From a virus (Duplodnaviria > Heunggongvirae > Uroviricota > Caudoviricetes): a stretch of DNA of 22,209 bases. The notes under the pieces were generated by a model that worked only from the letters and a program-made list of their open reading frames with translations, ran no database searches and had not been told where the DNA came from. How positions within the stretch are numbered: position 1 is the stretch's first letter; the number at the start of each line of letters is the position of its first letter. Both the position numbers and the translations under genes were made by a program. Where the stretch lies: the IMG/VR virus record IMGVR_UViG_2526164633_000039; one strand, 5' to 3'. Of this stretch, positions 4,248 through 17,238 are shown piece after piece.

Positions 4248-4427
4248 TATCGCGTCCTCAACAATGAATTTTGTGATGCGATGCCTGGTGCCTCCAGGTG
4301 ACGTTAACCAGTTAACAATTAACGCCGGATACAGAGAATCCACCCATAACACTGTTTTTGGTTTTAACTGTTCCGCGTGCGCTCAGCCGCATTCACCACA
4401 TCACAAAATTCACTTTAAAAAGGGCGG

Positions 4428-4485
4428 CAGAGCAGTCACGGAGTAAAACTGATACCGCCAAACGTCACCAGAAAATTGATAACAG
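4428..4485 (-). ncRNA. dicF: DicF small regulatory RNA (ftsZ-targeting) with intrinsic terminator
   Basis: Reverse complement of 4433-4485 reads TTTCTGGTGACGTTTGGCGGTATCAGTTTTACTCCGTGACTGCTCTGCCGCCC followed by a T-run, matching the DicF sequence as I recall it. GGCGG...CCGCC forms the terminator stem. Confidence 0.65.
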
Positions 4486-8499: not shown

Positions 8500-9531
8500 A
8501 TGTCTATTAATCCTAAACTTAAGCGTATCGCGCGACGCTATCCAGCGTTATTCCAATATGAGTCCCCCTATATGGCAAGAAAATTAATAATATTCGGCAA
8601 CGGTCTCGGTATGGCTTTAGATCCTGCTCACTTCTCCTTAGACAGAGCGTTGGAAGAAATTTGGCATCGCCCCAATTTTTTAAAAGATATCCACAAGCAA
8701 CTTATCGAGCGTTGTCTTCAGCGGCAAGGTCCACCAGAAGGAGAACATGAGTTGGATACCCTTCACCAGGCTGTCACATATTGTAAAGCTCTTGCTCAAA
8801 TTGGAGAGGGGAACGTGCATTGGCTTACTGAAGATGGACTAAACTTCCCCAAAATTACCGCCACTTATATTCACAAAGTTGCAACCAGGTTGCATAATTA
8901 CGATAAAGGTTTGCCACAAAGATTCGAAAATGCGCTTGTGGAGTTTGTAAAGAACACACACTCACATATCGCGACATTAAACTATGACAAATTATTATAC
9001 AATTCATTCATAGATAATGATATATTCAACGGGTATGATGGGGTTTTAGTTGATGGGATGCTAAGCCACGGATTTTCCTCTGCAGCGCTCGAACGGAAAT
9101 ACAATCGTAGGTTTGGTTATTATTTGCACTTGCATGGTTCACCACTATTTATTAATCAGCATGAAAATGTTTTAAAACTTTCACGCTCACAACTTACTCT
9201 TGACATAGATGAACCTAGTGAGCATATAGTGTTAACTCATATAAAAAGAAAACCGTCAGTTATAGCAGCATCTAATGTTCTTTCTACGTACTGGGATTAT
9301 TTGCAGTTTGCATTATTTGAATCAGAAGAAATAATATTGTTTGGTTACTCTGGTCTCGATATTCACCTTAACCTGCTTATTCGACCTTACCTAACCTCTA
9401 AGCCTTTAAGAGTAATTGAGTGGAGCGGTGCTGGTGAACAAAACGCTCGTGAGATATATTGGAAAAACCAGTTGAGACGGGAAGTTACTGTAATTAGGTT
9501 GGATAACATCACTGATTTTATTGATTGGTAG
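8500..9531 (+). CDS. SIR2-like (sirtuin-fold, SIR2_2/DUF4020-type) protein, 343 aa; candidate NAD-consuming anti-phage defence effector
   Basis: Motifs read directly from the translation: glycine-rich IIFGNGLGMA (aa 30-39), IATLNYD (Asn161), YLHLHGS (His210/His212), ILFGYSGLDIHL (aa 279-290). These match the order and spacing of defence-associated SIR2 domains. Coding GC is far lower than the flanking prophage (about 32% in sampled 60-nt stretches). Confidence 0.65.
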   Translation: MSINPKLKRIARRYPALFQYESPYMARKLIIFGNGLGMALDPAHFSLDRALEEIWHRPNFLKDIHKQLIERCLQRQGPPEGEHELDTLHQAVTYCKALAQIGEGNVHWLTEDGLNFPKITATYIHKVATRLHNYDKGLPQRFENALVEFVKNTHSHIATLNYDKLLYNSFIDNDIFNGYDGVLVDGMLSHGFSSAALERKYNRRFGYYLHLHGSPLFINQHENVLKLSRSQLTLDIDEPSEHIVLTHIKRKPSVIAASNVLSTYWDYLQFALFESEEIILFGYSGLDIHLNLLIRPYLTSKPLRVIEWSGAGEQNAREIYWKNQLRREVTVIRLDNITDFIDW

Positions 9532-9691: not shown

Positions 9692-9902
9692 TTTTATATT
9701 GGCGAGGTGACGGGAGTTAAGTAGAATTGCTGCGGGTGCTTGAGGCTGTCTGCCTCGGGCATGCCACCGTAAGGCAGACAGAGAAAAGCCCCAGTTAACA
9801 TTACGCGTCCTGCAAGACGCTTAACATTAATCTGAGGCCCAATCTATGCTTCACAAACGTAGGTTAGCCTCTTACGCGCCGAAAGGCAAGGAGAAGCAGG
9901 CT

Positions 9903-10058
9903 ATGAAGCAGCAAAAGGCGATGTTAATCGCCCTGATCGTCATCTGTTTAACCGTCATAGTGACGGCACTGGTAACGAGGAAAGACCTCTGCGAGGTACG
10001 AATCCGAACCGGCCAGACGGAGGTCGCTGTCTTCACAGCTTACGAACCTGAGGAGTAA
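9903..10058 (+). CDS. hokD: Hok/Gef-family type I toxin (51 aa), HokD/RelF-like
   Basis: MKQQKAMLIALIVICLTVIVTALVTRKDLCEVRIRTGQTEVAVFTAYEPEE has the Hok TM segment and conserved Cys. An in-frame upstream extension from 9846 is mok-like. A perfect 10-bp leader hairpin lies at about 9745-9780. Confidence 0.8.
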   Translation: MKQQKAMLIALIVICLTVIVTALVTRKDLCEVRIRTGQTEVAVFTAYEPEE

Positions 10059-10871: not shown

Positions 10872-11611
10872 GTGCGGGTATTACTTCGACCTGTTCTGGT
10901 ACCGGAACTCGGGCTGGTGGTCCTTAAGCCCGGTCGCGAATCACTGCCGGTTTTTCATTGCGGCAGGGTGCTGGTGGAGCCGGAACCGAAAAGCATGCGC
11001 GGTCTGCCGTCCGGAGTCGTCCCTGCCGTTCGCCAGCCGCTGGCGGAGGATAAATCATTACTGCCATTTTTCAGCGATGAGCGTGTGATTCGTGCTGCTG
11101 GCGGCGCTGGCGCACTGTCTGACTGGCTCCTGCGTCATGTCAAATCCTGCCAGTGGCCTCATGGTGACTACCATCACAGTGAAACCGTCATACATCGTTA
11201 TGGTACCGGCGCAATGGTGTTGTGCTGGCACTGCGACAACCAGCTGCGCGACCAGACCTCCGAATCACTCGGGCAACTTGCTCACCAAAACCTGTCTGCA
11301 TGGATGATTGACGTCATACGCCATGCAATGAATGGCTCGCAGGAACGGGAATTATCGCTGGCTGAATTATCCTGGTGGGCGATCCGCAATCAGGTGGCGG
11401 ACGCGCTACCGGAAGCGGTATTACGTCGTTCGCTGGGGTTGCGTGCGGAAAAAATCCGCTCAATGTACCGTGAAAGCGACATCGTACCGGGAGAGCAGAC
11501 CGCCACCAGCATACTGAAACAGCGCACAAAAAATCTTGCGCCGCTGCCTCACGCCCACCAGCAACAGAACCCGCCACAGGAAAAGACGGTGGTCAGCATT
11601 GCTGTTGATCC
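10872..11611 (+). pseudogene. ydfU: YdfU/DUF968-like gene, 5' portion, interrupted by IS66-family insertion
   Basis: Reading frame runs into the IS and terminates at a TAA created by the IS terminus (GTAAGCG). After removing the IS and one copy of the 8-bp duplication it continues in frame into 14324..14633. Confidence 0.6.
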
Positions 11612-11641
11612 GTAAGCGGCTCGCCAGAACCGTATTGATAT

Positions 11642-13213
11642 TTACTGAGAGGTCAGATCAACTTTCCAGGGCAACAGATCGCGTACCCGGTTTGCCGGCC
11701 AATCCTGGATATGCTCAATGACGTAACGCAGCCATTTTTCTGGTTCCACATTGTTCAGACGGCATGTGCCGATCAGCGAGTACAACACCGCCGCATGTTC
11801 GCCACCGCTGTCGGAACCCGCGAACAGCCAGTTTTTCCGGCCTACGGCCACTCCCCGTAAGGCGTTCTCTGCGATGTTGTTGTCGATTTCCACCCAGCCA
11901 TTACTGCAGTACACGTTCAGGCCATCCCACTGTTTCAGCAGGTATGCGAACGCTTTTGCCGTATCCGAGTGACGCGACAGTGTTTTCATCTGAGTCTGTA
12001 TCCAGTCATACAGTGACTGCATCAGTGGCGCAGCTCTGGCTTTTCTTGCCGCCAGACGCTGTTCTGCTGTACATCCCCGGACTTCTGCCTCTATGGCATA
12101 CAGTTCACCGATACGCTGCAGGGCTTCCGTGGTGATGTCGGTGGGCACTCTTGCATGCACATCGTGGATTTTTCTCCGGGCATGAGCCATACACGCGGCT
12201 TCCGTTATTCTGCCGGATTCGTATAACACCCGGTAACCACCGTAAGCATCGGCCTGAAGCACACCGCTGTAACCGGCCAGATGATTTTGTGGATGGATAC
12301 CTTTCCGGTCCGGTGAGTACGCGAACCAGACCGCCGGGGGCATTTCCGAACCGGCGTTACGGTCATCACGGACGTAGACCCACAGCCGGGCGGTCCGGGT
12401 TTTACCGCTGCCCGGCTCCTGGACCGGGACGGGGATATCATCAGCATGGACTTTACCGGGCATCAGCACATACTGGCGCAGGACGTCATACAGCGGCTCC
12501 AGCAGTTCAGCAACGGCACCTGTCCAGCGCCCCAGCGTGGCGCGGCTCAGCTCCACGCCCTGGCGACGGTATATTTCTGACTGGCGGTATAACGGCAGAT
12601 GGTCTGCATATTTCCCGGTAACAACATGGGCCAGAAGCCCCGCTCCGGCATAACTGCGTGCAATGGGTTTTGAAGGTACTGTTGCCTGCACGATATGGTC
12701 GCACCGACAACAGGCCAGTTTCGGACGTTGTGTTTCGATAACCTTAAAGGCGCTGCTGATAAGCTCCAGTTGCTCTGACACATCACACCCCAGAGGACTG
12801 AGGTCACCACCACAGGCCGGGCAGCATTCCTCTTCCGGCCGGATGACCCGGGTTTCACGGGGAAGTGAGGCCGGTAACGGTTTACGGGCTGAAGACTGGC
12901 GCAGGGCGGATGGCAGTACCGGGTCATATTGCTCACCCAGCGTTTCCGCCATTTCTTCCTGAAGTGCGCTGATTCGCTCCTGTGCTTCCTGTATCTGCCG
13001 TTCGGTTTTAGCGCGAAGTTTTTCTGAGCTTTTACCGAACTGCATGCGCTGCAGTTTCGCAACCAGCGCCTTCAGCCGGTTGATTTCGGAAGCATAAGCC
13101 GCCACCCGCTGTGAGAGCAGGCGGTTGTATTTCGCCATCTGGCGGATGGTGTCCTGTTGCGTCTGCAACAGTGCCCGCAGGCGGGCATTCTCATGAGCAA
13201 GTGAGGTGTCCAT
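11642..13213 (-). CDS. tnpC: IS66-family transposase TnpC (523 aa)
   Basis: Intact ORF with N-terminal coiled-coil/leucine-zipper-like region, a Cys-rich zinc-finger region (CPACGG...CCRCDH) and conserved IS66 transposase core. Confidence 0.9.
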
Positions 13214-13232
13214 ATCCTCACTTTACAACGGG

Positions 13233-13580
13233 TTATATGCGGATGCCAGCGCGTTCCGTTCGTTTCGGGTGCTTCCAGTCGATGCCTTCGAGAAGCATGG
13301 ACAACTGAGCCGGAGTAAGGTGAACCTTTCCATCGCGGGTGACCGGCCAGACGAAGCGGCCCCGCTCCAGGCGTTTGGTGAAGAGGCACAGTCCGTCACT
13401 GTCAGCCCACAGCACTTTTATCTGGTCACCCCGGCGTCCGCGGAAGATGAACAGATGCCCGGAGAACGGGTCATCCTTCAGGACGTTCTGAACTTTTGAG
13501 GCCAGGCCGTTAAAGCCATTTCGCATATCGGTGATACCGGCAACCAGCCAGATACGCGAACCGGCAGGGAGAGATATCAT
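13233..13580 (-). CDS. tnpB: IS66-family accessory protein TnpB (Orf2, 115 aa)
   Basis: MISLPAGSRIWLVAGITDMRNGFNGLASKVQ... is typical IS66 Orf2. Start overlaps the tnpA stop. Confidence 0.9.
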   Translation of the reverse strand: MISLPAGSRIWLVAGITDMRNGFNGLASKVQNVLKDDPFSGHLFIFRGRRGDQIKVLWADSDGLCLFTKRLERGRFVWPVTRDGKVHLTPAQLSMLLEGIDWKHPKRTERAGIRI

Positions 13581-14230
13581 CAGTGGCTGCTCCCTTTCAT
13601 TTCGCGGATAAGTGTCTGTAATAACGCCGGTGTCAGTTCACCTTTCAGCCTGAGAGTTCCGGCCGGCAGAACCAGCTCGCAGCACAGACTGTCTGGCAGT
13701 GTATTTATCTGTTCAGGTATCTGCACTGGTGCCGGGATTTTATTATCCGGCTCCGGAGTTAACGTCACGGGAAGTAGCGATGTTTCATGTTCGCCGGGCG
13801 GTTGCAGGCCACCGTTACGCCAGAGATGCCGCCAGTTAAAGAGCAGGTTATCGTTAATTCCATTCTCTCGAGCTATTTGTGCGACACAGGCACCGGGTAA
13901 AAGAGTTTGCTGAACCAGTCTCCATTTAAACTCCGGTGAAAATCGGTTCCGGCGGGGTTTCTCTGCTTTCACAGGCTGAGTCACGGTCGGGGCTGAAGGG
14001 TATCGCCCCGGGAAAAGAGCCCGGGCCAGTTGCCCGCAGGAATATTCACCGGAAAGAGGCCAGTCAGTGAATACCTGGTGAAATCGCCTCACCAGAGAAA
14101 AAATGGCGGTTTTGCTGACACCAGTCTGCGCAGAAATGCGCGGGTACGACAGTGACTCGTCAAATCTCAGCTGTAGCACACGCAGGATCAATTCTGGATT
14201 ATCTGCCAGTACCGCTTTTCGTGCATTCAT
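13580..14230 (-). CDS. tnpA: IS66-family accessory protein TnpA (Orf1, 216 aa as drawn; a shorter internal start is possible)
   Basis: First ORF of the element, with an HTH-like N-terminus. ATG at 14228-14230. Confidence 0.75.
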   Translation of the reverse strand: MNARKAVLADNPELILRVLQLRFDESLSYPRISAQTGVSKTAIFSLVRRFHQVFTDWPLSGEYSCGQLARALFPGRYPSAPTVTQPVKAEKPRRNRFSPEFKWRLVQQTLLPGACVAQIARENGINDNLLFNWRHLWRNGGLQPPGEHETSLLPVTLTPEPDNKIPAPVQIPEQINTLPDSLCCELVLPAGTLRLKGELTPALLQTLIREMKGSSH

Positions 14231-14323
14231 CTTAAATGTCCTTTTACTGCGAAAATGGACATTAGTATCGGAAACAGGAAAGGGAGGCGAAAGACGGTTT
14301 AAATGATGCGCTTACGTTGATCC

Positions 14324-14633
14324 GGAGTCTCCGGAATCTTTAATGAAGCGACCTAAACGTCGCCGTTGGGTAAATGAGAAATATACGCGCTGGGTAAAGA
14401 CACAGCCGTGTGCGTGTTGTGGTAAGCCAGCCGACGATCCCCATCACCTGATTGGTCATGGTCAGGGCGGAATAGGGACAAAAGCCCACGATATTTTCAC
14501 GCTACCGTTGTGCCGGGAGCATCACAACGAACTTCATGCTGATCCGCTGGCATTTGAAGAAAAGCATGGTTCCCAGATTGATTTAATTTTTCGTTTTCTT
14601 GATCGCGCCTTTGCAACCGGCGTGCTCGGGTAA
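14324..14633 (+). pseudogene. ydfU: YdfU/DUF968-like gene, 3' portion (Cys/His-rich C-terminal domain)
   Basis: In-frame continuation of 10872..11611 once the IS is removed. Contains CACCGKPADDPHHLIGHGQGG...CREHHNELH. Confidence 0.6.
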
Positions 14634-14645
14634 AAGAGGTTACTG

Positions 14646-15005
14646 ATGCGTATAGAGTTTGTTTTGCCTTACCCGCCGACGGTGAACACCTACTGGCGAC
14701 GTCGTGGCAGCACATATTTTGTGTCAAAAGCCGGTGAGCGTTATCGCCGGGATGTGGCACTTATTGTTCGCCAGCAGCGGCTGAAATTAAACCTGTCCGG
14801 AAGGCTGGCGATAAAGATTATTGCAGAGCCACCGGATAAGCGCCGCCGCGACCTGGACAATATCCTGAAGGCACCACTGGATGCGCTTACGCATGCCGGA
14901 CTACTTATAGACGACGAGCAGTTTGATGAAATCAATATTGTGCGCGGTCAGCTCGTTTCTGGTGGGCGGCTGGGCGTGAAGATTTACAAAATTGAAAGTG
15001 AGTGA
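14646..15005 (+). CDS. rusA: RusA Holliday-junction resolvase (119 aa)
   Basis: AGAGG RBS. Protein carries PPTVNTYWRRRG and RRRDLDNILKAPLDALTHAGLLIDDEQ, matching RusA motifs including the catalytic DxD region. Confidence 0.85.
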   Translation: MRIEFVLPYPPTVNTYWRRRGSTYFVSKAGERYRRDVALIVRQQRLKLNLSGRLAIKIIAEPPDKRRRDLDNILKAPLDALTHAGLLIDDEQFDEINIVRGQLVSGGRLGVKIYKIESE

Positions 15006-15568
15006 GCATAAATATGATATACCCGGAAATTACAGGCAAAAGCGGTGAGCATTTACGCCTGAAAACGCTGGAAAGTGTCTGGATCCAGGGGAAACTGCGT
15101 ATGTGGGGGCGTTGGTCGTATATTGGCGACGGTAAGACGGGAAATATGTTCAACCAATTACTGACCTCTAAAAAGCTGACAAAAACGGCAATTAACGAGG
15201 CGCTCCGGAGGATGAAAAAAGCGGGTCTGGACAAACCTGAACTTGAGGCTTTTTTGCGGGATATGATCAACGGCAATCAAAAAAGCTGGCTGGCACATTG
15301 TACCGATTCAGAGGCGTTAATAATCGACAGGGTTATTGGTGAAGTACTGGCAGGTTATCCCGGGCTGCTCAATGTTCTGAGTCAGCGTTATGTGGGGCGG
15401 GGGATGACTAAGCGCAAAATGGCTGAACTGCTGAATGATGCACATCCGGAATGGAGTTTAAGAACCTGTGAAAGACGCATTGAGCATTGGCTAAAGGTGG
15501 CAGAATTTATTTTGTACAAACCAATGGTTATGGCTTTTGGTATAGAGAAAAAAGTTATTGCTTTTTGA
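15002..15568 (+). CDS. Putative late-gene antiterminator (Q-like) assigned by position; function not confirmed from sequence
   Basis: GTG at 15002 overlaps the rusA stop; alternative ATG at 15014. Located between rusA and a hairpin plus T-run, where Q and tR' sit in lambdoid phages. No strong motif recognised. Confidence 0.4.
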   Translation: MSINMIYPEITGKSGEHLRLKTLESVWIQGKLRMWGRWSYIGDGKTGNMFNQLLTSKKLTKTAINEALRRMKKAGLDKPELEAFLRDMINGNQKSWLAHCTDSEALIIDRVIGEVLAGYPGLLNVLSQRYVGRGMTKRKMAELLNDAHPEWSLRTCERRIEHWLKVAEFILYKPMVMAFGIEKKVIAF

Positions 15569-15645
15569 CGTAAAAACTGCTTCAATTCCGGTAAGCTTCG
15601 CAAAGCTGTACCGCGAGGCGAATAGCAGACATGGACATTTGAAAG

Positions 15646-15669
15646 AGCCCGCTTTTTGCGGGTTTTTTT
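15646..15669 (+). terminator. Intrinsic terminator-like hairpin (possible tR'-like element)
   Basis: CCCGC-TTTTT-GCGGG followed by a 7-T run at 15663-15669. Confidence 0.4.
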
Positions 15670-15780
15670 ATGACTGAAAAACGGCACGGGGCGTTAAACG
15701 CGCTGGTGGTTGCTAATACCGGTCTTTCAACTTGCTGGCTTTTTCGACAAGAGTTATTGGTATGTCACGTTAACCGGAAA

Positions 15781-15990
15781 ATGGAAAAAGGCATGCTAAA
15801 ACAGCAGGATATGACCGAAACCGCCAGAGTGGTGTTTAATGAATTAAGCGTCACCGAACCGGCGACCGCCGGGGAAATTGCGCAGAACACTTATCTTTCA
15901 CGCGAACGCTGCCAGTTAATACTGACCCAGCTTGTTATGGCGGGTCTGGCAGATTATCAGTTCGGTTGTTACAGACGCCTTCCTCAGTGA
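15781..15990 (+). CDS. Hypothetical small protein (start uncertain; track ORF begins at 15670)
   Basis: Track ORF 15670..15990; the upstream ATG lies inside the terminator T-run, so an internal start (15781 or 15793) seems more plausible. Confidence 0.3.
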   Translation: MEKGMLKQQDMTETARVVFNELSVTEPATAGEIAQNTYLSRERCQLILTQLVMAGLADYQFGCYRRLPQ

Positions 15991-16009
15991 AGGCTTTTTA
16001 TTTGTGGTA

Positions 16010-16147
16010 ATGGGCGGCTGGTGGGTGTTAGCGGCACCTGCCAGCCATCTGCTCATGCGTTGGGGTCACAAGCAAACCTCAGGCCCATCTGCTTTGCGCA
16101 AAAGCGGTATGAGCCTATCAGAGAAGTGCTTATTGATCTATGGCTAA
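16010..16147 (+). CDS. Hypothetical small ORF whose stop overlaps the methyltransferase start
   Basis: Track ORF 15932..16147 with an internal ATG at 16010. Its TAA at 16145-16147 overlaps the methyltransferase ATG at 16140, suggesting translational coupling. Weak RBS. Confidence 0.25.
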   Translation: MGGWWVLAAPASHLLMRWGHKQTSGPSALRKSGMSLSEKCLLIYG

Positions 16148-17198
16148 TACTGTAAAAATATCCAGTTGTGAGTTAATCAACGCTGATTGCCTGGAATTTA
16201 TCCAGACCTTACCGGAAAACTCTGTCGATCTGATAGTCACAGACCCGCCATACTTTAAAGTGAAGCCCGAGGGCTGGGATAACCAGTGGAAGGGCGACGA
16301 TGATTACCTGAAGTGGCTGGACCAGTGTCTGGCGCAGTTCTGGCGGGTGCTGAAACCTGCCGGAAGTCTTTACCTGTTCTGTGGTCATCGCCTGGCATCT
16401 GATATCGAAATCATGATGCGTGAACGCTTCAGTGTGCTGAACCATATTATCTGGGCGAAGCCGTCCGGACGCTGGAACGGATGCAACAAGGAAAGCCTGC
16501 GGGCGTATTTCCCCGCCACAGAGCGCATTCTGTTCGCGGAACATTATCAGGGGCCGTATCGTCCGAAAGATGCCGGGTATGCGGCGAAGGGCAGTGCACT
16601 GAAACAGCATGTGATGGCCCCGCTGATTTCTTACTTTCGTGATGCGCGCGCGGCCCTGGGGATAACGGCAAAACAGATTGCAGATGCCACAGGAAAGAAA
16701 AACATGGTGTCGCACTGGTTCAGTGCCAGTCAGTGGCAGCTACCGAACGAAAGCGATTATCTGAAATTACAGTCGCTGTTTGCCCGGGTGGCAGAAGAGA
16801 AACATCAGCGGGGAGAACTGGAAAAGTCCCATTACCAACTGGTCAGCACATACAGTGAGCTGAACCGGCAGTATATGGAACTGCTGAGTGAATATAAGCA
16901 TCTGCGGCGGTATTTTGGCGTGACGGTGCAGGTGCCGTATACCGATGTGTGGACGCATAAACCGGTGCAGTTCTATCCCGGGAAACATCCGTGCGAAAAA
17001 CCGGCAGAAATGCTGCAGCAGATAATCAGCGCTAGCAGTCGTCCGGGTGACCTGATTGCAGATTTTTTCATGGGGTCGGGTTCGACAGTGAAAGCGGCAC
17101 TGGCGCTCGGGCGTCGTGCAATTGGCGTTGAGCTGGAGACTGAACGTTTTGAGCAGACGGTTCGGGAAGTACAGGATTTAGTCAGCCAGAACGGATGA
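16140..17198 (+). CDS. Orphan DNA methyltransferase (N6-adenine/N4-cytosine type, DPPY motif; beta-class order)
   Basis: IVTDPPYF (motif IV) near the N-terminus and FFMGSGST (motif I, SAM-binding) near the C-terminus. No adjacent restriction endonuclease ORF. Confidence 0.85.
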   Translation: MANTVKISSCELINADCLEFIQTLPENSVDLIVTDPPYFKVKPEGWDNQWKGDDDYLKWLDQCLAQFWRVLKPAGSLYLFCGHRLASDIEIMMRERFSVLNHIIWAKPSGRWNGCNKESLRAYFPATERILFAEHYQGPYRPKDAGYAAKGSALKQHVMAPLISYFRDARAALGITAKQIADATGKKNMVSHWFSASQWQLPNESDYLKLQSLFARVAEEKHQRGELEKSHYQLVSTYSELNRQYMELLSEYKHLRRYFGVTVQVPYTDVWTHKPVQFYPGKHPCEKPAEMLQQIISASSRPGDLIADFFMGSGSTVKAALALGRRAIGVELETERFEQTVREVQDLVSQNG

Positions 17199-17238
17199 TA
17201 TTGAAGAATTAATTACGCGTCGTTATTATGCGGCTCCC

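Follow-up and report, generated by a model that had tools for sequence, protein, structure and literature searches.

What does an adenine methylase without a partner nuclease do for a lambdoid prophage, and how might a gene whose unscheduled expression is harmful be controlled? The question is raised by a 22,209-nucleotide (nt) stretch of viral DNA assigned to Caudoviricetes (IMG/VR record IMGVR_UViG_2526164633_000039), which we call the window, always meaning the whole of this stretch. On its + strand, at positions 16140-17198, the window encodes a DNA methyltransferase of 352 amino acids (aa). A preliminary description, made from the letters of the window, took this gene for an orphan methylase with an anti-restriction or epigenetic role, possibly coupled in translation to a small upstream open reading frame (ORF). 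We consider it likely that the gene specifies a late, Q-dependent, nonspecific anti-restriction hypermethylase with an extra gate at the RNA level. The enzyme itself is already known and extremely common, and by itself it is an ordinary finding; what the analysis adds is a corrected expectation for methylome experiments and an apparently undescribed, constrained leader RNA in front of the gene.

A methylase of the M.EcoGII family

Pfam, PHROG, BLASTP and RefSeq comparisons assign the protein to the M.EcoGII family of beta-class N6-adenine methyltransferases. Its match to Pfam N6_N4_Mtase (PF01555) spans aa 29 to 340 and scores 150 bits against a cutoff of 26.7 (E = 1.3e-43), and the PADLOC Type II MTase model matches it at E = 2.8e-165. 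The DPPY tetrapeptide (motif IV; aa 35 to 38, nt 16242-16253) is followed by the target recognition domain (TRD) and then by the FxGxG element (motif I), here FMGSGS (aa 310 to 315, nt 17067-17084), which is the beta-class arrangement. The recognition domain, which contains a helix-turn-helix (HTH), lies at about 16617-16850 on the + strand, with its limits taken by homology from PMC11551740. Matches in the Protein Data Bank (PDB) cover only the catalytic Rossmann halves (aa 8 to 114 and 281 to 343; E = 1e-15 to 1e-25), and the central recognition domain of about 150 aa has no sequence match there. The structural relatives whose catalytic halves align in this way are the beta-class adenine methylases 8urk/9c3u, M.RsrI (1eg2), CcrM (6pbd) and M1.MboII (1g60); all of these solved enzymes are site specific, unlike the M.EcoGII clade, with 8urk/9c3u deposited only as “Methyltransferase.”

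The preliminary description was right that the DPPY-motif methylase is an orphan lying between a Q-like gene (15002-15568) and three tRNA genes (17239-17488). No restriction endonuclease family was found among the neighboring ORFs scanned (RusA, the Q-like protein, a winged-helix ORF, an esterase and a holin). A split DUF968 gene 1.5 kb upstream gave only subthreshold matches to HNH-type nucleases; its counterpart in phage SfV is annotated as an HNH endonuclease. DUF968 is a common gene of the lambdoid nin region and not a restriction partner.

The window protein is identical to RefSeq WP_000024312.1, which is labelled “DNA-methyltransferase”; some RefSeq homologues carry the label “site-specific DNA-methyltransferase.” By BLASTP it is identical to M.EcoGII at 328 of 349 positions (∼94%) without large gaps, and four positions differ within the recognition region (aa 160 to 237). 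The M.EcoGII reference was GenBank EGT69837.1, taken from Table S1 of PMC11551740; as the PDF was machine read and contains evident misreadings, the true identity is probably slightly higher. The window protein shares with M.EcoGII and its paralogue M.EcoGI the length class, the DPPY-TRD-FxGxG order, the HTH-type recognition domain, a prophage location and the lack of a partner; it differs from M.EcoGII in about 21 substitutions and in sitting in a prophage disrupted by IS66-family elements. Judged by its sequence, it belongs to the M.EcoGII clade as a beta-class, prophage-borne orphan.

M.EcoGII methylates adenine in any sequence context, in double-stranded DNA, single-stranded DNA, DNA:RNA hybrids and RNA (Murray et al. 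2018, PMC5778455). In the same study, the enzyme converted 86% of plasmid adenines in vivo, and clones expressing it constitutively grew slowly and were unstable. M.EcoGI, a 95%-identical paralogue, comes like M.EcoGII from Escherichia coli O104:H4 C227-11, and neither was expressed in the lysogen under normal growth (PMC5778455). Phage 1720a-02 was named there as carrying a “very similar” enzyme (PMC5778455); its locus is 92.5% identical in DNA to that of the window. Of six ancestors designed to span the distance from M.EcoGII back to the last common ancestor that it shares with M.PflMI, the five that could be expressed all methylate both DNA and RNA, and a lack of specificity on RNA was shown for two of the reconstructed ancestors, Anc291 and SUPREM (PMC11551740). 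The initial rate of M.EcoGII itself is given as 11.12 on DNA and 0.12 on RNA, a difference of about 90-fold (PMC11551740, Table S3). Footprinting, chromatin mapping and RNA N6-methyladenine (m6A) tools also make wide use of M.EcoGII as a reagent. Because of the ∼94% identity, the window enzyme would be expected to methylate adenine N6 in essentially any context.

This expectation runs against one claim of the preliminary description, namely, that the enzyme modifies a particular motif, which was to be identified by comparing the methylomes of a lysogen and a cured strain; failure to detect a prophage-dependent motif was to refute the idea. As neither a motif nor expression in the lysogen is to be expected, a comparison that yields no motif is the expected outcome even for a functional enzyme, and the proposed refutation test is invalid. 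The same applies to the very common “DNA-methyltransferase” genes of Stx and other lambdoid prophages, for which annotators and methylome studies should expect neither a motif nor a signal from the lysogen.

A conserved noncoding leader

The spacer between a small upstream gene and the methylase is more conserved in alignments than the coding DNA on either side. Alignments of homologues and a covariance model delimit a conserved noncoding leader of about 132 nt (16008-16139, + strand). The sample comprised 48 loci from about 45 Enterobacterales species, collected through the methylase protein, and at least 120 viral contigs, collected through a DNA pattern of the spacer. In 160 of 163 testable occurrences of the leader pattern, a DPPY methylase ORF begins at a fixed distance of 73 to 74 nt, and the three exceptions are decayed copies of the methylase gene. 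The covariance model, built from 42 sequences, gave exactly one match per locus in 86 loci (637 kb), always before the methylase, and found no second leader elsewhere in the window. It had no match upstream of four more divergent methylases, two of them at 74 to 77% protein identity. These two, from Erwinia endophytica (L028, 2359-2509) and a Pantoea sp. (L047), lack a recognizable leader; in the Erwinia locus, what remains of it is the final ∼15 nt ahead of the ATG (GCGTTTACTGGCCTATG), and the sequence GGAGGAG stands some 40 nt upstream.

Across 40 species-level loci, the mean pairwise identity of the leader is 0.857. For the adjacent methylase gene in the same loci, identity is 0.826, 0.878 and 0.483 at codon positions 1, 2 and 3, respectively. 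By this measure, the leader is as constrained as the positions that determine amino acids, with synonymous sites near saturation. Rfam 15 contains no match overlapping 16008-16139 at an E value of 10 or below (scan of 15560-16260), nor was one found in a gathering-threshold scan of the whole window, and the literature searched, including Tree 2014, the Pas small RNA (sRNA) preprint and the StxS paper, describes no sRNA or leader at the position upstream of the methylase. We therefore regard the leader as a strongly constrained and apparently undescribed element tied to the M.EcoGII family.

The small ORF to which the methylase had been said to be coupled lies across this leader. It is a frame of 71 aa with a TTG start (15932-16147, + strand), and its TAA stop (16145-16147) does overlap the methylase ATG at 16140 by 8 nt (ATGGCTAA). 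The overlap stands, but the status of the ORF as a gene does not. The frame begins within a real gene of 65 aa, in another frame, crosses a hairpin at 15977-15994 and is unannotated in a sequence-identical RefSeq locus. Among nine phage loci, an open frame is confined to the closest relatives in E. coli (phiP27, 1720a-02 and WGPS2); in SfV, mEp460, phiNP, Kp4866-6 and an Stx2c phage, the stops that flank it are 24 codons apart and it ends at another place. Across 95 distinct homologous leaders, any given frame of either strand is open in 33 at most, and the two main clades, which are set apart by 1-nt indels, do not share the same open frame. In the clade in which the 71-aa frame is open, 32, 32 and 23 substitutions fall on codon phases 1, 2 and 3, respectively, with no excess at the third position. 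On this comparative evidence, the 71-aa ORF is not a gene but a chance open frame over a conserved leader and, because it is not conserved, translational coupling is unsupported.

The real upstream gene (15793-15990, + strand) encodes a protein of 65 aa that is probably a winged-helix protein. The identical RefSeq locus lists this protein as WP_000917751.1, and the annotation of phiP27 calls it a “TrmB family transcriptional regulator.” The protein matches PHROG 331 (function unknown) at E = 5e-37 and Pfam TrmB at E = 0.004, which is below the cutoff, and a single-sequence AF2 model shows three helices but is poor (pLDDT, 59). Of 127 distinct contexts of the leader, roughly 100 have the gene upstream and about 23 lack it.

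Two further coding candidates within the leader were rejected. A peptide starting at a conserved ATG at 16010 would have 3, 7, 33, 38, 43 or 45 residues, depending on the lineage, and is not conserved, and the minus strand has no consistently open frame among the 95 distinct homologues. In 31 of these leaders, the frame from 16010 stops after seven codons, as in the mini-ORF MGGWWVL at 16010-16033 (MGGWRVL in five), and in others it runs for 33 to 45. The tandem Trp codons of MGGWWVL are the sequence of a Chi octamer and of hairpin P1, described below, read in frame; no evidence was found for a function of this mini-ORF.

RNAalifold, applied to 42 leaders, predicted a three-way junction made of a stem and the elements P1 and P2, followed by a further hairpin, P3, all on the + strand. 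The junction stem (UGGGC:GCCCA; 16011-16015 with 16083-16087) shows one compensatory change from G:C to A:U. P1 (16016-16027 with 16035-16046) is a long hairpin of about 19 bp in which the Chi octamer (16017-16024) is contained; it folds at −30.4 kcal/mol (z = −4.3). P2 pairs 16050-16053 with 16071-16074, and P3 pairs 16091-16095 with 16101-16105. The closing pair of P2 (16050:16074) covaries, being C:G in 30 leaders, A:U in 20, U:A in 6 and U:G in 5, and is thus paired in 100% of them; a divergent leader (L035) supplies a second compensatory pair in P2. In a model-fitted alignment of 62 distinct leaders, 98.4% of cells were paired, compared with 27 to 48% in slid controls. Five pairs with changes on both sides were observed, against 1.4 in shuffled alignments, and the covariation score was reached in none of 500 shuffles. 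An alignment of the leaders that had not been fitted to the model gave the same pairing picture.

Other folds were considered. The minimum-free-energy fold of the single sequence, a “rod,” found no covariation support on the alignment, in a test in which one rod helix had been entered one column out of register, and the three-way junction was preferred. An alternative extension of P1, AUGGGC:GCUCAU, is 99.6% pairable and excludes both the junction stem and P2.

The start site of the methylase has its own peculiarities. None of 95 leaders has a tetramer resembling a Shine-Dalgarno (SD) sequence (GGAG, GAGG or AGGA) within 18 nt of the AUG. Instead, 88 of the 95 carry UGAUC at −6 to −2, complementary to a conserved GGUCA/GGAUCA at 16064-16068. 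UGAUC is also complementary to GAUCA near the 3′ end of 16S rRNA. Pairing is predicted between GGUCA (16064-16068) and UGAUC (16134-16138), just 5′ of the AUG, on the + strand, and a thermodynamic prediction for the window sequence gives an ensemble pairing of 96% for UGAUC and leaves the AUG 77% unpaired. Both partners of this helix are conserved, and its covariation is one-sided only.

Expected silence in the lysogen and a possible gate

Upstream of the leader lie the signals that would govern transcription of the methylase. The Q-like late antiterminator gene (15002-15568, + strand; RefSeq start at 15014) matches Pfam DUF1133 (E = 3.7e-105), Phage_antitermQ (33.1 bits) and PHROG 753, “anti-termination protein Q-like” (E = 5.8e-81); its counterpart in the identical RefSeq locus is annotated as a “DUF1133 family protein.” It is followed by a tR′-like intrinsic terminator (15647-15669, + strand; GCCCGC-UUUUU-GCGGGU and a run of seven U's), the hairpin of which folds at −18 kcal/mol (z = −6.0; none of 200 shuffles was as stable). 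A simple scan missed this terminator because its stem can extend into the U-run. A second, terminator-like signal picked up by the terminator scan, P0, stands at the stop of the small gene and consists of a hairpin at 15977-15994 and a U-rich tail (15977-16003 in all, + strand), folding at −8.9 kcal/mol. By eye, sampled homologues have a hairpin in this position directly 5′ of the leader, also where the upstream gene differs, and its sequence varies while the pairing is kept; an automated hairpin-plus-T-run criterion recognized it in only 6 of 79, the tail being weakly U-rich in many relatives. The annotation of SfV places terminators at positions equivalent to both. A consensus scan of the + strand from the Q-like gene to the methylase ATG (15569-16139) found no sigma-70-like promoter.

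The tR′ hairpin and the ∼80 nt upstream of it probably correspond, by analogy, to a short constitutive transcript from the late promoter. Such a late-promoter/tR′ transcript is known from lambda. In Stx phages it has been described as StxS (PMC7547250). An isrK-like Rfam match (15595-15668; E = 0.066, below the gathering score) ends at the tR′-type terminator.

With no promoter-like site of its own, two terminators upstream and what holds for lambdoid phages in general, the methylase would be transcribed only by Q-modified polymerase after induction and would be silent in the lysogen. In the mechanism that we propose, a lambdoid prophage carries the gene as a “moron” in its late operon, and the gene product would use S-adenosylmethionine (SAM) to make N6-methyladenine, with neither a cognate nuclease nor a motif. 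After induction, Q-modified RNA polymerase would read through both 15647-15669 and 15977-16003 so that the methylase is made; replicating phage DNA would then be hypermethylated before packaging, and the progeny may be shielded from many adenine-sensitive restriction systems in the next host. Of the two roles offered by the preliminary description, anti-restriction appears to be the most plausible, and an epigenetic role is unlikely, given the silence of the family in lysogens and the two terminators.

A second layer of control is plausible because unscheduled expression of the methylase is harmful. In the leader, GGUCA would pair with UGAUC 5′ of the AUG and sequester the SD-less start, possibly as part of a two-state switch. 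The reading of the leader as a translational gate draws on the com-mom system of phage Mu, in which mom is toxic and its translation is gated by a hairpin at the start site, which the small Com protein opens (PMC6483171, PMC3378877). As in Mu (Hattman), the enzyme of the window would be a late-expressed, host-toxic, adenine-modifying anti-restriction enzyme, with a small gene just upstream, and the counterpart of the mRNA structure that sequesters the mom start would be the predicted pairing before the AUG. Unlike the window methylase, Mom is a carbamoylmethyl-transferase with an acetyltransferase fold; the two enzymes are unrelated, and so are the leader RNAs. Com is a zinc finger protein whose ORF overlaps mom, whereas the small protein of the window is a putative winged helix ending 149 nt before the ATG; it has no zinc finger signature, and no Com-like activator was found. 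The resemblance is one of function, drawn by analogy, and not of membership. In Mu-like prophages of Haemophilus and Neisseria, the place of mom after com-like genes is taken by nonspecific adenine methylases of the alpha class (PMC3299994). These enzymes (Hia5, Hin1523 and Nma1821; Drozdz et al. 2012, PMC3299994) would share with the window methylase the nonspecific m6A activity predicted for it, the anti-restriction slot in a late operon and the temperate phage host; they differ in being of the alpha class (FxGxG first, DPPY last), in their Mu-type rather than lambdoid context and in following com-like genes.

More tentatively, the leader may represent a new class of cis-regulatory RNA for M.EcoGII-family hypermethylases, acting as a bistable translational switch, an idea that on balance seems doubtful to us. 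One state would be formed by AUGGGC:GCUCAU and the other by UGGGC:GCCCA together with P2, and the switch would free the SD-less start on a specific signal, for example, a late phage protein, the enzyme itself or the level of SAM or S-adenosylhomocysteine (SAH). SAM/SAH is a candidate trigger because the enzyme could drain the SAM pool of the cell. Neither the silencing of a toxic M.EcoGII-type enzyme by its phage nor a conserved RNA before its gene has, as far as we found, been described previously. If the leader is a gate or a switch, it would explain the tight silence, offer a compact natural control module for toxic genes and add a lambdoid counterpart to the Mu com/mom paradigm.

Several points weigh against the proposal of a Q-dependent, gated anti-restriction enzyme. 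The activity is inferred for this exact allele, which departs from the published M.EcoGII sequence at 21 positions, including four within the recognition domain; machine-reading errors may account for some of the 21. Q-dependence rests on gene order and terminators, and a consensus scan found no late promoter between the Q-like gene and tR′. To our knowledge, anti-restriction by the M.EcoGII family has not been demonstrated in a real phage cross. The leader is absent before the relatives at 74 to 77% identity mentioned above (L028 and L047) and is therefore not indispensable. Its covariation amounts mostly to one strong pair and a few single events, as most columns are invariant and uninformative on structure; an alignment made with a covariance model leans towards that model, and the two alternative leader pairings fit the data about equally well. 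The conserved block could also act as DNA, through Chi at 16017-16024 or a protein-binding site.

This last alternative, in which the block would be a Chi-based recombination or anti-RecBCD element or else an operator or promoter bound, for example, by the winged-helix protein, strikes us as improbable. The Chi octamer (GCTGGTGG) in the 5′ arm of P1 is kept in 83 of the 95 distinct leaders, and the 22-kb window contains eight Chi octamers, another of which lies at 15702-15709, where 0.86 would be expected by chance; six of the eight are on the + strand. The orientation of the leader Chi, which we take from textbook lambda biology to face RecBCD entering from the cos end, was likewise counted in favor of an action as DNA, as was the DNA-binding type of the small gene that usually adjoins the leader. 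However, only 8 of the ∼132 conserved bases belong to Chi, 12 leaders have the hairpin without Chi, and the P2 closing pair follows Watson-Crick/GU logic in every sequence, which argues for a single-stranded fold. The leader also keeps a fixed distance from the AUG, has no promoter-like site and persists where the winged-helix gene is absent. The Chi sequence in the leader may be selected or may be a by-product of the hairpin. We give little credence to the idea that the leader serves solely in RNA processing or stability, for instance, as an RNase III site in P1 of a long late transcript. P1 is certainly long and very stable, and polycistronic phage transcripts are often processed at such hairpins, as in the lambda N leader and the T7 early RNAs, but this would leave unexplained the 80 conserved nt 3′ of P1, the missing SD sequence and the pairing before the AUG. 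A role for RNase III and a translational gate are not mutually exclusive.

The reading from which the analysis started, in which an orphan methylase with sequence specificity marks a lysogen motif for epigenetic or anti-restriction purposes and is coupled to the 71-aa ORF, now seems very unlikely. It can draw on the overlap of the ORF stop with the ATG, on the open frame in phiP27, 1720a-02 and WGPS2 and on the “site-specific” label of some homologues. Against it stand the ∼94% identity to a nonspecific enzyme that is silent in lysogens (PMC5778455) and an ORF that is broken in diverged relatives, varies in frame by clade, lacks a codon-phase signal and overlaps both a real gene and the terminator hairpin; comparative data have already largely refuted it. 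Least probable of all is that the relevant substrate in vivo is RNA, be it phage or host transcripts, rRNA or tRNA, rather than phage DNA. M.EcoGII and its ancestors do methylate RNA in vitro (PMC5778455, PMC11551740), and the methylase gene adjoins phage tRNA genes, but the initial rate of M.EcoGII is ∼90-fold higher on DNA (PMC11551740, Table S3), and the cassette occurs without tRNAs in other lambdoid phages. We therefore retain the late, nonspecific anti-restriction enzyme with an RNA-level gate as the preferred reading.

The surrounding prophage and its relatives

The locus is widespread. DNA of the window from 15560 to 17540 matches 293 phage records, mostly of Stx2-converting phages, at 82 to 94% identity, and 3,306 of 5,426 complete E. 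coli genomes; in 1,761 of these genomes (about one third of the total), the match extends over at least 80% of the length, and a single genome may hold up to 15 copies of the region. The order Q, terminator, small gene, ∼150 nt, methylase, and tRNAs/stx or holin recurs in phiP27, WGPS2, 1720a-02, SfV, mEp460 and phiNP. In E. coli FDAARGOS_1059, the small gene, leader and methylase are base-for-base identical to those of the window except for one T: the T-run after the P0 hairpin (15995-16000) is T5 in the window and T6 in FDAARGOS_1059 (L002, 18436-18442), the sole difference there.

The prophage of the window is most likely defective because one IS66-family element lies between the early region and Q and another lies in the lysis region, and its intact methylase gene is probably never expressed. 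The first element (11612-14340, minus strand; Pfam DDE_Tnp_IS66, TnpB_IS66 and HTH_Tnp_1) interrupts the DUF968 gene ahead of rusA and the Q-like gene, so that DUF968 is split into 10872-11615 and 14343-14633. The second copy, recognized as a direct repeat, follows a YdfR-like gene (from about 20602 to the window end at 22209 and past it, minus strand) and is 94 to 97% identical to the first and in the same orientation. In a related RefSeq prophage, DUF968 is intact and an IS66 element sits in the terminase gene, and the IS66/DUF968 junction of the window is absent from the 5,426 complete E. coli genomes. The two direct copies bracket rusA, Q, the methylase, the tRNAs, the esterase and the holin, and this segment of ∼6 kb could move or be deleted as a unit.

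Downstream of the methylase, a site resembling a sigma-70 promoter (TTGAAG-17-TATTAT; 17201-17229, + strand; a consensus match only) lies just 5′ of the tRNA genes, and an intrinsic terminator (17503-17528, + strand; −11.4 kcal/mol) follows them. The three tRNA genes (17239-17488, + strand), called by ARAGORN and RefSeq, are a tRNA with a CAU anticodon (17239-17314), Arg-UCG and Arg-UCU. The CAU tRNA is Met according to ARAGORN and tRNA-Ile (ileZ, with a lysidine-modified CAU) according to RefSeq and phage records. The tRNA genes are followed by a NanS-p-like esterase (DUF1737-SASA-DUF6645) and then by a phage-21-type holin and the YdfR-like gene. Between the tRNAs and the esterase gene, in what is the stx slot of Stx phages, lies the sRNA STnc100 (17564-17754, + strand; Rfam RF02076, 139 bits). 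According to a 2026 preprint, STnc100 and PasD sRNAs are linked with the esterase genes that Stx-type prophages carry.

In the early region, a 343-aa SIR2-like protein (8500-9531, + strand) matches Pfam SIR2_2 (E = 1e-5) and, weakly, the PADLOC SIR2/PDC-S21 models, and its RefSeq counterpart is a “SIR2 family protein.” This gene, near hok/sok, is possibly a prophage-borne anti-phage defense gene. The window also carries the DicF antisense RNA (4422-4473, minus strand) and the sok antitoxin RNA with hokD (9734-9908, + strand), which are typical of Qin/Rac-like defective lambdoid prophages.

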